From a virus (lineage: Duplodnaviria; Heunggongvirae; Uroviricota; Caudoviricetes): a stretch of 64,000 nt of DNA. The translations under genes were made by a program, and so were the position numbers. Positions 3,335 through 21,603 of this stretch are shown here, in pieces; position 1 is the first letter of the stretch; each line of letters opens with the position of its first letter. The notes below the pieces were generated by a model, which saw only the letters and a list, made by a program, of their open reading frames with translations, was not told where the DNA came from and searched no databases. Location of the stretch: the IMG/VR virus record IMGVR_UViG_3300042346_001601; one strand, 5' to 3'.

Positions 3335-3898
3335 TTATAGTACCGCATATCGTAATGTACACCCAGTATATCCCATAGGTCTATACTCTTCAGGATTATC
3401 TAATACTCTTTCTAACATATTACGAATCATTTGTTTATCATCTTCATATGTTCTTTTAGGCGCGTCAATATCTTGAGGAAACTCAGGTGACCAAGTTAAT
3501 GTTATACTTTGTTTTGGTTCAAAGGTTTCTGGGTTAAATGTTATAGGTGCAAACACACACCCATCTTTTACTGGCTTATACATCTCTTCTGGTTCGTATA
3601 TTTTTGGAGTAAATGATATAGTATAAACATATCCTACTTTATGTTTATAAGTTGGATTTTCGGAATCTGATATTTTAATAGATTTCGCAACAATGGGAGT
3701 TGTCTTGTCTTCAGTAAGACCTGAAGGTAATTCCATCCATATAATCTTATCAAACTCAAAATGTTTAATTAGTTCTGCTTCTACTTGAATACGTTGTTCT
3801 TCTGATAGTTTAGTTATCGATTCAATATCATTATAACCATAAGTTTTATCTGCACTTCCGCAGATTGATAGTAGTTTTTCTGTTAAATTTGATTTCAT
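3335..3898 (-). CDS. hypothetical protein
   Basis: 187-aa ORF; no motif recognised. Confidence 0.5.
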   Translation of the reverse strand: MKSNLTEKLLSICGSADKTYGYNDIESITKLSEEQRIQVEAELIKHFEFDKIIWMELPSGLTEDKTTPIVAKSIKISDSENPTYKHKVGYVYTISFTPKIYEPEEMYKPVKDGCVFAPITFNPETFEPKQSITLTWSPEFPQDIDAPKRTYEDDKQMIRNMLERVLDNPEEYRPMGYTGCTLRYAVL

Positions 3899-4003
3899 AA
3901 ATTATATTTTTAATTTCATAAATGTTTCTTTTTGTGTTGTACTAGATTACCATACCCACCAATTTGTTTGCTACAAATATCACAAACAAATTTTTCTAAA
4001 GTT

Positions 4004-4573
4004 TTACCTTTGTTCCATGTAGGTTTTCCCTTTTTTGGTTTCACTTATTTTGTTACTATGTTCTTTTGTTCTTGGTGGTTTTGGTTTCCTTAATTTTTCT
4101 CTATTCTCTCCTTTTTTCATTGGATTATTATCACCTGATAATGCAATGCTCATTTTATATCTATACTCATCAGATTTATGAAATCCATGTGATATTCTTT
4201 TTTGTATTGTTTCTTCGGATTGCGTTACCCCAATTTGATATTCTCTTAATTTTTGTTTTTGCTCTTCTGTTCTTGCGTATCTTAACTTTTCTCTAACTTC
4301 ATCTGATGGATTGAATAACCCCTCACCCCCATCTGTCATATTTGTCAACATATCTCTACCATATTTTTGAATTAAATATTTTTCAGTGTCACATGCACCT
4401 TCCCATTCAATATCCGATTCAATAATTTCAACATCATATCCATATTTAGCAACAACGTTTTTCCAATGTATGTTTCTATTTCTATAAGAATAAGCTCTTT
4501 CTTCATAAAGGCCAATCCCAACATAAAAAACTTCATTAGTATTTTTCTTTTTGTGTAAATAAACAACTGCCAT
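4004..4573 (-). CDS. GIY-YIG family homing endonuclease (freestanding, I-TevI/Seg-like) with C-terminal NUMOD-like basic tail
   Basis: N-terminal VVYLHKKKNTNEVFYVGIG...YSYRNRNIHWKNV...KYG fits the GIY-(x10)-YIG..R..H..N motif; lysine-rich DNA-binding C-terminus. Sits 71 nt downstream of thyA C-fragment, like I-TevI and td in T4. Confidence 0.8.
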   Translation of the reverse strand: MAVVYLHKKKNTNEVFYVGIGLYEERAYSYRNRNIHWKNVVAKYGYDVEIIESDIEWEGACDTEKYLIQKYGRDMLTNMTDGGEGLFNPSDEVREKLRYARTEEQKQKLREYQIGVTQSEETIQKRISHGFHKSDEYRYKMSIALSGDNNPMKKGENREKLRKPKPPRTKEHSNKISETKKGKTYMEQR

Positions 4574-4587
4574 ATATTATTTCTTTT

Positions 4588-4601
4588 GGTATAAATATAT
4601 G
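4588..4601 (-). promoter_or_regulatory. putative promoter element (sense strand CATATATTTATACC) upstream of GIY-YIG gene
   Basis: Plus-strand GGTATAAATATATG; near-identical 14-mer GGTATAAATATACG recurs at 28877-28890 upstream of another gene; member of recurrent CGTATATTT(G/A) family. Confidence 0.3.
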
Positions 4602-4644
4602 AAAGTTGTGAAAAAGGTGTTTTAATTGTAGGTTATTTTTCATG

Positions 4645-5445
4645 TCAATTGGACAGGGGCGCTTTAATTGTTGGATGTGATACATAATTTTCTAAAATAA
4701 TATCTCCTGGCATAAATGATTCGATACCATCTCTAACGTGAACATTTGGTAGTCTAAATGGTTCTCTTTTTATTTGCTCTTTTGCTTGTTCAATATGATT
4801 TAAATACAAATGTGTATCTCCTAAATTACCAATCAATTCATCAGGTATCATTTGTACTTCATCTGCAATCATTTCCAATAATAATCCATAAGAAGCAATG
4901 TTGAATGGTAAACCCAAGAATGTATCTACTGAGCGTTGATTCCACATTAGAGAGATTGCTCTGGTTGGAACTTCGGCTTCATTCATTATTTTAATATTTA
5001 ACTCTTTAATATGTTCTCGGGTTTCCATTTTAAATCTTTCTGTTGATTGAAATATATTACACCGTTCTTCATAACTTAACTCTCTTGTATAAACTTGAAA
5101 TCCATAATGACAAGGTGGGAGAACCATTTGGTCTAATTCACCTACATTCCAAGCCGAAACCATTAATCTCCTACTATCAGGATTTGTTTTAAGGTCGTTG
5201 ATTAGGTTTTGGATTTGGTCAATATACTGTGTTCCTTTTACATATAAGGGTTCAATATCATCACCATCATCAATTTTTAATGTTGTTGGAATAGCAACTT
5301 CGGTTTTCCATTTTCTCCACTGTTTACCATAAATTGGTCCCAAATCACCCCACTTCTTAGCAAACTCATCATCTGTTTTGATTTTGTTGATGAATTCTTC
5401 TTGGGTGTATGGTCTTCCATCTGGGTGTAAGTGTTCTTTATTCAT
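4645..5445 (-). CDS. thyA: thymidylate synthase ThyA, C-terminal fragment (from GDLGPIYGKQWR to C-terminus) with own ATG and 30-aa N-extension
   Basis: Contains canonical TS motifs DLGPIYGKQWR, DSRRLMVSAWN, LPPCH (catalytic Cys), QRSVDTFLGLPFNIASY, GDTHLY. Lacks first ~85 residues of TS, which are encoded by ORF 6454..6771. Confidence 0.9.
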   Translation of the reverse strand: MNKEHLHPDGRPYTQEEFINKIKTDDEFAKKWGDLGPIYGKQWRKWKTEVAIPTTLKIDDGDDIEPLYVKGTQYIDQIQNLINDLKTNPDSRRLMVSAWNVGELDQMVLPPCHYGFQVYTRELSYEERCNIFQSTERFKMETREHIKELNIKIMNEAEVPTRAISLMWNQRSVDTFLGLPFNIASYGLLLEMIADEVQMIPDELIGNLGDTHLYLNHIEQAKEQIKREPFRLPNVHVRDGIESFMPGDIILENYVSHPTIKAPLSN

Positions 5446-6409
5446 AACTTTTTATTTCATTTTTTAATTGTTCTAAATCAATATCACATCTTTTACTTTT
5501 AGTTCTATTACTACTCCATTCTATCATTTGTAGATTACAGTGATGACTAATAATTTCAGGTTCTACATTATTCAAAAATCCTTCAATTATTGAGTATTTG
5601 TGGTCTAATTGGAACCCAATTTTTCCATTTGTTACTCTTTCTAAATTATTTGGGTTTATAATGTTTTTATACATTTTATATGTTGTTTCAGTTAATCGTT
5701 TAACTTTTTTTCTATAAATTTGGTAATCCGACAAAAACTCATCAGGTATTATCCATCCTCTTTCGATTTTTGTTTTAATACCATTACCAATTCTATTTTC
5801 CGAGTTAATATTAGCGGAATTATTAACCCCGTATTTATCTTTTAATACTTGCTTTATTTTCTCTTTTATACTGTGAGATTTAAACGGGTTGTCAACACCA
5901 TACTTTTTAATCCAAGTATTTAACGCTTTTTGTTTTATTGCATCACTATGAAAAGAATGTTCAACACCATATTTTTTAATCATAGTTGATTTAATTTTCT
6001 TTTTTAGTTCAGGACTTTGTAAAGTATAACCACCGTATTTTTCATTAACAGTTTTACGTCTTTTATTATTTCTTATGATTTTATCTGTTTCCGATAAACT
6101 ATTATATCTTTCTCTAAATTTATTTTTAGTTAGTTCCGAATTGTTATTACACTTTGCAGAACAAAATTTTCTATTCAAATCAATAATTGGGTTACCACAA
6201 TGGAAGCAAGTATTAACGGAGTTTCTATCTTTCAAGATATACCTTATCCTATCAACCAATTTAGGATTGTAAATAGTTAGATATTGAGTACTATCAATAA
6301 TATCCTGTTTAAGTGATGATTCAATTACTCTTAATTTTTGAGACAATATTTTATACTCATTATTTTTTATAACACACAAGGTTGTTTCAATTTTAGTTTT
6401 TAGACACAT
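5438..6409 (-). CDS. HNH homing endonuclease with NUMOD-like KYG repeats, inserted between the two thyA fragments
   Basis: C-terminal QLDHKYSIIEGFLNNVEPEIISHHCNLQMIEWSSNRTK = HNH motif (DH..N..HH.NL); repeated KYGV.NPF/KYGVEHSF modules; Cys cluster CFHCGNP..CSAKC. Stop overlaps thyA-C start (TATGAATAA). Confidence 0.8.
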   Translation of the reverse strand: MCLKTKIETTLCVIKNNEYKILSQKLRVIESSLKQDIIDSTQYLTIYNPKLVDRIRYILKDRNSVNTCFHCGNPIIDLNRKFCSAKCNNNSELTKNKFRERYNSLSETDKIIRNNKRRKTVNEKYGGYTLQSPELKKKIKSTMIKKYGVEHSFHSDAIKQKALNTWIKKYGVDNPFKSHSIKEKIKQVLKDKYGVNNSANINSENRIGNGIKTKIERGWIIPDEFLSDYQIYRKKVKRLTETTYKMYKNIINPNNLERVTNGKIGFQLDHKYSIIEGFLNNVEPEIISHHCNLQMIEWSSNRTKSKRCDIDLEQLKNEIKSYE

Positions 6410-6453
6410 TTTGGTTTCTTTTATAATAAATATCTAAAAACCAACAAAAGTCA

Positions 6454-6771
6454 TTATTTTTCCTCATCTTTCTTTAACTTCTCACATTCTTTTAGGTATG
6501 CTTGATAAGCATCCCCCGTCCAAATGTTACAGTCATTTTTAAGAAGATACTCTATTGATGTATCGCCTCTTAAAAACCAAAGTAATTCTGTACATATTGA
6601 CTTCCACGCCATTTTCTTGGTTGTAAGAAGTGAAAACCCTTCACTCATTTTATGACGGATTTGTCTACCAAATACTGAAATAGTACCAGTACCTGTTCTA
6701 TCTTTCTTTTCCACTCCATTATCTAATATATCTTGGAGTAGTGATTGATACTGTTTATCGAGGTTGTTCAT
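6454..6771 (-). CDS. thyA: thymidylate synthase ThyA, N-terminal fragment (residues ~1-85) ending in its own stop codon
   Basis: [84 protein letters not shown] aligns to E. coli ThyA 1-85 (KNDRTGTGTLSIFG...FPLVTTKR...ELLWFLQGDTNIAYL...NVTIWD). Confidence 0.9.
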
Positions 6772-6943
6772 AATGTTCTAATTGTTGTTCGTTAAAAATG
6801 TGTAATAATCCATATTCATCCATTTCGGCTACTAATCTAATTTCACCTTTTATTGTTGTGAATACGGATACAATTGTGCAAGGAAATTTATATCCTTTCG
6901 GTTTCCACGCTTTATCTCCTACTTTAAATTTTGTGTTATTCAT
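6755..6943 (-). CDS. hypothetical protein
   Basis: minus-strand tiled ORF. Confidence 0.4.
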
Positions 6944-6947
6944 ATAT

Positions 6948-7241
6948 TTAATAATTTATTCCATTTTCATATTTGTTAATTGTATCTTCCATCTGATGGA
7001 ACATTTGTTTAATTCTCATCCCAAGTTCATATGGGTCGGCATGCTTAACACCTTCTAATGTTATTCTATGGTTGGCTTTAAACCATTGTGGTGTTTTAGA
7101 CCATTTTTCTTCGCCTAAAAATCCTTCATATTTTCTGTATGCCACATCATGCATTGTAACCAAACAATCAAATCTGATTTCACATACTCGTTGTGTATTT
7201 GCAACAATTTCAGGTACAGGTGTTATTTCTATTTTATTCAT
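6948..7241 (-). CDS. hypothetical protein
   Basis: minus-strand tiled ORF. Confidence 0.45.
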   Translation of the reverse strand: MNKIEITPVPEIVANTQRVCEIRFDCLVTMHDVAYRKYEGFLGEEKWSKTPQWFKANHRITLEGVKHADPYELGMRIKQMFHQMEDTINKYENGINY

Positions 7242-7268
7242 GACTTTCTATAGTTTTGTTGTTGTATG

Positions 7269-7724
7269 TTAAGATAACTGGAGTAAAATTCTATCTTCTT
7301 TTTTAAAACATTCCCCATTTATTATCATATCGCCACTTTCATTTTTTTCAGTTTCAACGGTACAATAAATCCATCTGAGTTGTTGAAGGTGAGATACAAC
7401 GCTAGATATTTTACACCATTTAGGTTTAAACATATCACTTGCCGTGTCGATATCATCTAACAACTTAAACATAAATTCAAGTTTATGTGTTAATGTTGCA
7501 ATATTAATACCTCTACGTTGTGATAAATCAATAGCATAAGTGTCTTCAGTCATTTTAACTAATTCATCATCAACAGAGTGAGCTTCTTTTGCTTTGTTAT
7601 AGCAATACTTCACATAATTTTTATTACCTTCTATCCCTTCATACCCTTCGAGAATATCTTCAATTGATGATAACACATCTCTTAATTTGTTTGCTGAATA
7701 TAGCATTTTGTGTTTGTCGTTCAT
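7269..7724 (-). CDS. hypothetical protein
   Basis: 151-aa ORF; no motif recognised. Confidence 0.5.
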   Translation of the reverse strand: MNDKHKMLYSANKLRDVLSSIEDILEGYEGIEGNKNYVKYCYNKAKEAHSVDDELVKMTEDTYAIDLSQRRGINIATLTHKLEFMFKLLDDIDTASDMFKPKWCKISSVVSHLQQLRWIYCTVETEKNESGDMIINGECFKKEDRILLQLS

Positions 7725-7827
7725 AACTTTCTAGTGTTTTAGATGTTTTTTCCAAATGTTTACTACCGCTTCTGCTCTTGGGCCTTTTAGTTTTGACCAA
7801 CGATTAATCCAGTGTTGTATTTCTTCT

Positions 7828-21215: not shown

Positions 21216-21603
21216 CGTTTCTTTCTTTGATTGAATCTGATGAAGAATCAGGAGGAATTGCACCCCATATTTTCGCAAAATCCTTGTCTGATATTGAACG
21301 AGCAATAAAGTCGGATTTCGTGAGTGGATCGTTCAGAGTGTACATCCAGGCGTTGTAGTACTTTTGGTAGGCAGAATCCATTCTTGATATTTGTGAATTG
21401 GAGGTTGCCAAATCAATCCCGTGATGCACTCCCCTAATAAATTCTTCAATCTCCTGGTTTGAAATTAGGGGCAGGGATTTACCTAAAGCCAAGCCTACCT
21501 CGTTGCCTAAATCCGACACTTCACCATTAGGGTAGGAAACATTTTTTAAGTGGTCTGAAATTTCCTCTGTTATCCTTTTGAAGTCGAAGTTTTGGTAGGT
21601 CAT
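21208..21603 (-). CDS. hypothetical protein
   Basis: 131-aa ORF. Confidence 0.45.
   Translation of the reverse strand: MTYQNFDFKRITEEISDHLKNVSYPNGEVSDLGNEVGLALGKSLPLISNQEIEEFIRGVHHGIDLATSNSQISRMDSAYQKYYNAWMYTLNDPLTKSDFIARSISDKDFAKIWGAIPPDSSSDSIKERNDD

Follow-up and report, generated by a model that had tools for sequence, protein, structure and literature searches.

The window analyzed here, a stretch of 64,000 nucleotides (nt) from the Caudoviricetes virus record IMGVR_UViG_3300042346_001601, carries on its minus strand a thymidylate synthase gene, thyA, that is interrupted by a gene for an endonuclease. In all likelihood, a free-standing homing endonuclease, probably of the HNH type, has here produced a thymidylate synthase (TS) that is encoded in pieces and involves no splicing. 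Three consecutive open reading frames (ORFs) run from position 6771 to position 4645, encoding an N-terminal fragment of TS (N-fragment), the endonuclease, and a C-terminal fragment of TS (C-fragment) (Table 1). A preliminary description of this DNA, made from the sequence alone, had reported thyA as two separately terminated and initiated ORFs, with a short gap 5' of the endonuclease ORF and the stop codon of the latter overlapping the ATG of the C-fragment, and all of these coordinates, lengths, and codons were recovered. The N-fragment ends in KKDEEK followed by TAA, while the N terminus of the C-fragment reads MNKEHLHPDGRPYTQEEF...GDLGPIYGKQWR. The start codon of the C-fragment sits within the mobile endonuclease gene, and as there is an in-frame TAA two codons 5' of this ATG, an earlier start for the C-fragment is impossible. 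No terminator-like site was found within positions 3800 to 7400, and the absence of a terminator between the ORFs is consistent with a single transcript.

Together, the two fragments make up the full Pfam Thymidylat_synt profile (PF00303), with the N-fragment matching profile positions 1 to 90 (E = 1e-30) and the C-fragment matching positions 76 to 265 (E = 3e-63). The DRTGTGT phosphate-binding loop and the LLWFLRGDT helix both lie in the N-fragment, and the C-fragment holds the motifs GPIYGKQWR, DSRR, LPPCH with the catalytic Cys, WNQRSVD, FNIAS, and DTHLY. All catalytic residues are accounted for across the pair; those checked were the Arg of RTGTGT, the Tyr of IYGKQWR, RR, the Cys of PPCH, QRSxD, the Asn of FNIAS, and HxY. 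A gene that is contiguous in relatives is present here as two ORFs, each with a stop or a start of its own. The arrangement is not unique to the window, as contigs in 62 blocks of the collection encode the exact N-fragment protein, the layout being identical wherever it was read, and the exact C-fragment protein was found on 20 contigs.

Table 1. Features of the split thyA locus and of the adjacent endonuclease gene (window coordinates)
Feature	Position	Strand	Details
thyA N-fragment, coding sequence	6454..6771	-	105 amino acids (aa) plus TAA; TGA directly after, at 6453..6451
T71-S72-I73-E74 codons (ACA TCA ATA GAG)	6550..6561	-	Characteristic of alleles with the endonuclease; ACT AAT ATT AAG (TNIK) in unsplit alleles
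Mobile block	5405..6564	-	~93-100% nt identity between divergent thyA backgrounds (alignment A3, sliding identity)
Spacer	6410..6453	-	44 nt, from N-fragment stop to endonuclease ATG
Conserved hairpin	6411..6444	-	TTGGTTTTT, 15-nt AT-rich loop, AAGAAACCAA
Endonuclease ORF	5438..6409	-	972 nt, 323 aa
Probable HNH (His-Me finger) motif	5498..5614	-	FQLDHKYSIIEGFLNNVEPEIISHHCNLQMIEWSSNRTK, residues 266-304
Overlap of endonuclease stop and C-fragment ATG	5438..5445	-	8 nt, ATGAATAA (TATGAATAA)
thyA C-fragment, coding sequence	4645..5445	-	266 aa
GIY-YIG/NUMOD3 endonuclease gene, frameshifted	3916..4573	-	189-aa ORF 4573..4004 plus 42-aa ORF 4044..3916; Pfam NUMOD3, PHROG 314

The position of the break was determined by sequence alignment of the fragments to the solved TS structures of E. 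coli, S. aureus, and L. casei, which was used in place of an AF2 model. Relative to E. coli TS, the joined protein contains a 45-residue insertion (residues 86 to 130) between E. coli residues 81 and 82, and the break after residue 105 lies in the middle of this insertion. The site matches that of the insert found in the longer TS chains 4dq1, 3uwl, and 1lca, and the loop is hypervariable in both length and sequence among unsplit homologues. By this alignment the break falls within an insertion-tolerant loop, as the preliminary description had proposed. The same description correctly gave the N-fragment as ending with a stop but estimated that it covers TS residues 1 to 85 or so; of the residues in the fragment, approximately 81 have counterparts in canonical (E. 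coli) TS and the others belong to the loop.

Uninterrupted alleles, with which the preliminary description had suggested that the gene be compared, were abundant in a survey of homologues drawn from a collection of 5.8 billion proteins. All 119 of the best full-length TS homologues examined (59 to 77% identity) are unsplit, and thyA is likewise uninterrupted in the closest isolated phage, Flavobacterium phage immuto, the TS of which is 56% identical. The empty allele that defines the insertion was identified in the sibling locus L076 (which holds P0004, one of the 119 TS homologues). This locus is syntenic with the window, has flanks that are 94 to 98% identical, and encodes a continuous 367-aa thyA product. 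Neither the middle ORF nor the GIY-YIG endonuclease gene that lies downstream of thyA in the window is present in this locus. Compared with L076, the window has approximately 1.16 kb (~6564 to ~5405) in place of approximately 110 nt of thyA.

This segment forms a sharp-edged block that opens with approximately 110 nt of 5' exon and the N-fragment stop, continues through the spacer and the endonuclease gene, and closes with the C-fragment start codon and approximately 35 nt of 3' exon. Outside the block, thyA is only 40 to 80% identical between backgrounds and the neighboring genes differ. A block of this kind is the pattern that would be expected from homing with coconversion of flanking markers, and the element shows both presence/absence polymorphism and apparent flanking coconversion. 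Proteins with at least 90% identity to the endonuclease are encoded on many contigs, and the three-ORF arrangement recurs in three neighborhoods, represented by the window type (L003 and L004), L005 to L010, and L011 to L016, in which the N-fragments are 105 or 110 aa and the C-fragments are 236, 243, 266, or 270 aa in length. Overall, the cassette was identified in at least nine different thyA/genome backgrounds, with endonuclease identities from 99% down to 60%. The identities of the full-length endonuclease homologues grade from 99% down to 50%, and the homologues at 94, 85, 77, 76, 63, and 60% are each located between an N-fragment of 92 to 110 aa and a C-fragment of 236 to 330 aa. Across the split lineages, the C-fragment starts inside the 3' end of the endonuclease gene, with overlaps of 8 to 26 nt that differ in sequence. 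The association between the endonuclease and thyA is old.

A number of loci depart from the common arrangement. In L030 (2501-3469), a premature stop (CAA to TAA) interrupts the endonuclease gene at codon 267, immediately ahead of the DH motif, and the thyA fragments beside the truncated gene (104 and 264 aa) are intact. In L031 (2186-4457), the cassette and its tails are found approximately 20 codons further upstream in thyA, after WFLKGDDTS, and the 330-aa C-fragment consists of a cassette-derived head plus its own NIKYL...EDFIKTIK segment, which amounts to a partial duplication. The 50% homologue, present in L024 and L032 (the same contig; L024:2890-4810), stands on its own, with a complete, divergent TS-family gene (276 aa) downstream of it, and its spacer holds a remnant of a TS N terminus, LLQNIINNGVEKE, along with the same hairpin that is described below for the window. 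A further DUF7487 gene begins at position 5898 of L024. Separately, at L059:2240-4716, a different DUF7487-type gene (341 aa) with another C-terminal domain lies between a 48-aa TS N-terminus remnant and a complete 414-aa thyA, which represents a second route of invasion into the thyA family.

The left edge of the shared block (~6564) coincides with codons that differ between endonuclease-carrying and unsplit alleles (TSIE and TNIK, respectively). GDTNIKYL or a close variant is encoded by 114 of the 119 unsplit homologues, while 11 of the 13 split lineages encode GDTSI(E/D)YL, that is, TSIE or TSID. The Asn-to-Ser codon is changed at all three bases (AAT to TCA), and the adjoining codons carry extra synonymous changes. 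From this pattern we infer that the TNIK-coding sequence of empty alleles is recognized or cut and that the coconverted substitutions would confer immunity; in the endonuclease-less thyA of L076, the cut is predicted near GATACTAATATTAAG. One unsplit 360-aa thyA product (P0047) bears the signature of the endonuclease-carrying alleles, and this allele may be of the ancestral donor type or may have arisen through loss of the endonuclease.

The spacer that precedes the endonuclease gene is conserved in sequence and has the same length as in the window in most lineages examined, the other lengths being 47 nt in L022 and 111 nt in L024. It contains a hairpin, the 3' arm of which stops 2 nt short of the endonuclease ATG. 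Using RNAalifold, a consensus of nine pairs was obtained for eight lineages, including that of the 50% homologue, with one pair fully compensated and several showing GU/GC switches. The hairpin motif occurs once in the window, against an expectation of 0.07. Hairpins that mask translation starts are known for mobE, I-TevI, I-TevII, I-TevIII, and segB (PMC2988022), and by analogy the hairpin probably masks the translation-initiation region of the endonuclease. Two other proposals for the spacer were abandoned. The 5' arm TTGGTTTTTAGA was considered as an operator mimicking the thyA LWFLRG codons TTTGGTTTTTAAGAGG, in the manner of I-TevI, but the 10-nt AT-rich match is not significant and the remainder aligns poorly; the motif TATTATAAAAG in the spacer loop, considered as a phage promoter, has a single occurrence in the window, which is fewer than expected by chance. 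A scan for sigma-70 promoters gave no enrichment, sigma-70 being uninformative for an AT-rich phage that is probably of the Bacteroidota type.

The endonuclease comprises an N-terminal domain with a four-Cys ribbon (C68, C71, C83, and C87), a region of DUF7487 "KYGV-N" repeats (residues 115 to 201), and a C-terminal nuclease domain. It matches Pfam DUF7487 (E = 6e-16) as well as PHROG 3339 and 12131, both annotated "homing endonuclease," and its homologues include F-LimIII of Dickeya phage LIMEstone1. Residues D269, H270, N292, and N301 are invariant across 18 homologues, and an AF2 model of the endonuclease (mean pLDDT of 73) has strands at residues 266 to 270 and 293 to 297 followed by a helix at residues 298 to 307. 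On the basis of these invariant residues and the predicted strand-strand-helix arrangement, the ORF is considered to encode a probable HNH enzyme. Other comparisons added nothing to this assignment: Pfam identified neither HNH nor NUMOD in the middle ORF and gave no match at E ≤ 10 for its C-terminal 99 residues, no hits were returned by Foldseek for the endonuclease model against the PDB or by hhalign against T4 MobE, and phmmer against PDB sequences yielded chance matches only. The "HNH/NUMOD" label used in the preliminary description holds only in part, HNH as a probable motif and NUMOD least of all, the NUMOD3 motif being that of the GIY-YIG ORF at 4573..4004.

Several other explanations for the locus were weighed. 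It is very improbable that the insert of approximately 1 kb is a self-splicing group I (or other) intron, nearly filled by its ORF, from which a single thyA mRNA is restored as in T4 td, even though thyA is the classic phage host of group I introns (T4 td) and the insert, at 1,011 nt, is a multiple of 3 that leaves the N- and C-fragments of the window in a shared frame. The covariance-model search suggested in the preliminary description was performed, and Rfam gave no group I (RF00028) or group II match at E ≤ 10 in positions 4400 to 7000 or at E ≤ 1 in seven related loci. The same search applied to the T4 nrdB-td region as a positive control detected the td and nrdB introns (E = 9e-8 and 2e-6), but below the gathering score. 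The spacer is the only noncoding part of the insert, and as homologues of the middle ORF align from approximately residue 19 to residue 323, noncoding sequence could amount to no more than approximately 100 nt at the 5' end, with none at the 3' end, which leaves no room for a ribozyme core. Codon identity at synonymous positions across eight lineages is flat along the ORF (0.52 to 0.67), climbing to 0.73 to 0.87 in the last ~30 codons, which adjoin the C-fragment start; there is no long block of suppressed synonymous change that would suggest a buried ribozyme core. Moreover, the stop and the overlapping start have been kept in all lineages in differing sequences, which a spliced intron would not need, and in L020 the insert leaves the two thyA halves in different reading frames. 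A wholly new ribozyme class is still conceivable. Nevertheless, of the two readings offered in the preliminary description, a free-standing endonuclease and a group I intron, the results agree with its preference for the former. Translational bypass or read-through was rejected given the gap of approximately 1 kb and the L020 halves being out of frame with each other. Least credible of all is a "fractured gene," in which the halves are joined by trans-protein splicing and the endonuclease gene lies between the halves of a split intein. The order of N-part, endonuclease, and C-part does match that of metagenomic fractured genes (PMC2677866), but the tails past TS homology measure only ~12 aa in the N-fragment and ~13 aa in the C-fragment and both align to the variable loop of unsplit TS, both fragments match PF00303 only with no intein or Hint domain found by Pfam, and the sequence shows no residues of the intein blocks.

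Given free-standing insertion, the question becomes whether the two halves still function. The window was found to contain neither a second thyA nor an ORF with a ThyX motif; the preliminary description had held that an intact thyA elsewhere would point to decay of this copy. We infer that a working two-piece TS is to be favored over a pseudogene, because dN/dS (the ratio of nonsynonymous to synonymous substitution) is below 1, the motifs are intact, the window has no other TS, and the split outlives a truncated endonuclease. Against a working, unspliced TS in pieces stand several points. The search for another TS covered 64 kb of a contig of approximately 267 kb, and a second TS elsewhere in the genome is possible; the dN/dS values between split lineages (rough Nei-Gojobori estimates of 0.07 to 0.27 for the N-fragment, 0.19 to 0.37 for the C-fragment, and 0.12 to 0.32 for the endonuclease) are indicative only, as dS is saturated and much of the TS divergence predates the insertion; reassembly of TS from two pieces is without precedent in any organism in the literature searched; AF2 modeling of the fused TS (alignment A2) reached a mean pLDDT of 51 and could not be used to place the break; and the Rfam group I model fits phage introns imperfectly, such that, with the T4 introns falling below its gathering threshold, a very atypical ribozyme could be missed. 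The first of these also favors the view that the split thyA is dead or decaying, with the insertion having inactivated the gene and the phage relying on the host or on another TS, as does one allele in the C-fragment cluster (P0125) in which WNQRSVD has been altered to "LNLNQRSVD." Decay is nonetheless improbable: intact ORFs with all catalytic motifs persist in at least nine independent backgrounds with endonuclease divergence to 60%, dN/dS is well under 1, the C-fragment start is maintained in differing sequence contexts, and the TS fragments outlast the truncated endonuclease in L030. A last possibility, also quite improbable, concerns the endonuclease itself, which may be no longer, or not only, selfish and may be kept for a phage function such as thyA regulation or the exclusion of competing phages. 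The ORF is under purifying selection across 60 to 99% identity and is always linked to thyA-family genes, and I-TevI of T4 also serves as a repressor (PMC2988022). Conversely, near-identical sharp-edged blocks in divergent backgrounds indicate recent horizontal spread, the truncated copy in L030 and the empty site in L076 fit an ordinary cycle of invasion and decay, and evidence for another activity was not found.

Under the favored reading of a TS in pieces created by a homing endonuclease, a free-standing gene for an endonuclease, probably of the HNH type, has inserted into a hypervariable surface loop of a phage thyA. The cassette supplies a stop for the upstream half, a spacer whose hairpin probably limits translation of the endonuclease, and a start codon for the downstream half located inside the last codons of the endonuclease. 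With neither RNA nor protein splicing, the halves would be translated separately from one transcript and would associate noncovalently into an active (N+C)2 TS. The endonuclease would cut empty thyA near the GDTNIKYL codons, approximately 110 nt upstream of the insertion point, and repair from a cassette-bearing genome during coinfection would copy both the cassette and the flanking exon that gives resistance. It is tempting, although on balance unlikely, to regard the cassette as a portable "split-and-reassemble" module in which the exon-derived tails (the head of the C-fragment being MNKEHLHPDGRPY...) act as dedicated interaction pieces. These tails always accompany the endonuclease gene and are kept in L031 despite the shift of ~20 codons and the duplicated segment. 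If the cassette is such a module, the endonuclease could colonize coding sequence with no need for a ribozyme or an intein, and the split would become irreversible once fixed.

The GIY-YIG gene located just downstream of thyA in the window is a separate mobile gene that has no part in the split. It is frameshifted and is 99.5% identical to an intact 220-aa copy downstream of an unsplit thyA in L078. An I-TevI-like GIY-YIG gene is also present downstream of the split thyA at L020:4784-5539, where it ends in YNSHPSIKATLNN, a copy of the C-terminal codons of thyA. The thyA gene itself is strongly mosaic: at the gene ends (window positions 4684-4922 and 6726-6800) it is 93 to 100% identical to L011, with 47 to 77% identity between them, and the segments identical to the TS of the window differ among the proteins P0002, P0003, and P0004. 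Another indel relative to L076 is found at window positions 7271-7819 on the minus strand (including a 151-aa ORF at 7269..7724), where approximately 550 nt corresponds to approximately 250 nt in L076. Upstream of the split thyA in L005, positions 2608-2702 gave an Rfam tRNA match (E = 2e-5) that is unusually long, at 95 nt against a model of 71 positions. Peptides similar to the C-fragment segment RPYTQEEFINKIKTDDEFAKKWG (42 to 65% identity over 23 to 31 aa) occur in other ORFs, at window positions 21250-21327 and at L026:729-797, 1012-1104, and 1617-1694.

The closest known parallel comes from phage Aeh1, in which mobE splits nrdA without abolishing enzyme activity and the tails that arose from the insertion are indispensable (Crona et al. 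2011, PMC3045599). In both systems, a free-standing endonuclease gene, of the HNH type in Aeh1 and probably so here, lies inside a nucleotide-metabolism gene and leaves it as two ORFs that are translated separately. Neither system has an intron or an intein, the element in each carries short C- and N-terminal tails along with it, and a hairpin is found at the translation start of the endonuclease (PMC2988022). The systems differ in that the host gene here is thyA and the endonuclease belongs to an unrelated family (DUF7487 repeats with a C-terminal HNH-like motif), in that the break here is in a variable surface loop and not in a functionally critical region, and in that many divergent lineages are represented here as opposed to one phage; activity of the split TS is deduced from sequence. 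With T4 td and I-TevI, the locus shares a thymidylate synthase host and an endonuclease gene interrupting the coding sequence, and it too would spread by homing with exon coconversion. However, T4 has a self-splicing IA2 intron at another position in the gene with a GIY-YIG enzyme encoded in an intron loop, whereas no ribozyme is detectable here and the halves carry stop and start codons of their own. T4 mobA (genes 39/60) and seg43 (split gene 43, Aeromonas phage 25) are likewise free-standing endonuclease genes located between the two parts of an enzyme gene that relatives have in one piece, although their hosts are topoisomerase and DNA polymerase genes and the endonuclease may or may not have caused the gene 43 split (PMC2988022). 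Unlike in gene 43, the split in thyA can be tied to the cassette by means of the empty-site sibling and the sharp block edges. F-LimIII and related putative endonucleases of LIMEstone1, which GenBank records annotate as free-standing homing endonucleases, resemble the endonuclease in their DUF7487-type repeats (~33% identity over residues 38 to 195), but the similarity does not extend beyond the N-terminal and middle regions.

No description of an endonuclease-split thyA was identified in the literature searched, coverage of which was incomplete. According to a 2021 paper, nrdA of Aeh1 was the sole gene split by a free-standing endonuclease that had been shown to retain activity (PMC8351571). 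The thyA locus offers a second good natural case of an essential enzyme that probably works "in pieces," and one that is far more widely sampled. A thyA split by an endonuclease is unsurprising in principle, but this example is well supported and widespread and involves an enzyme that is easily tested. TS is an obligate dimer with textbook structure and genetics and is directly selectable in E. coli thyA mutants. For annotation, the two thyA halves should be merged and not labeled as pseudogenes. As the same gene family hosts the T4 td intron, ribozyme splicing and a gene in pieces can be compared side by side. Furthermore, the natural variants, which include intact, truncated, and shifted cassettes as well as empty sites, inform how such cassettes invade, how recipients become immune, and how far the TS dimer tolerates breaks in its backbone.

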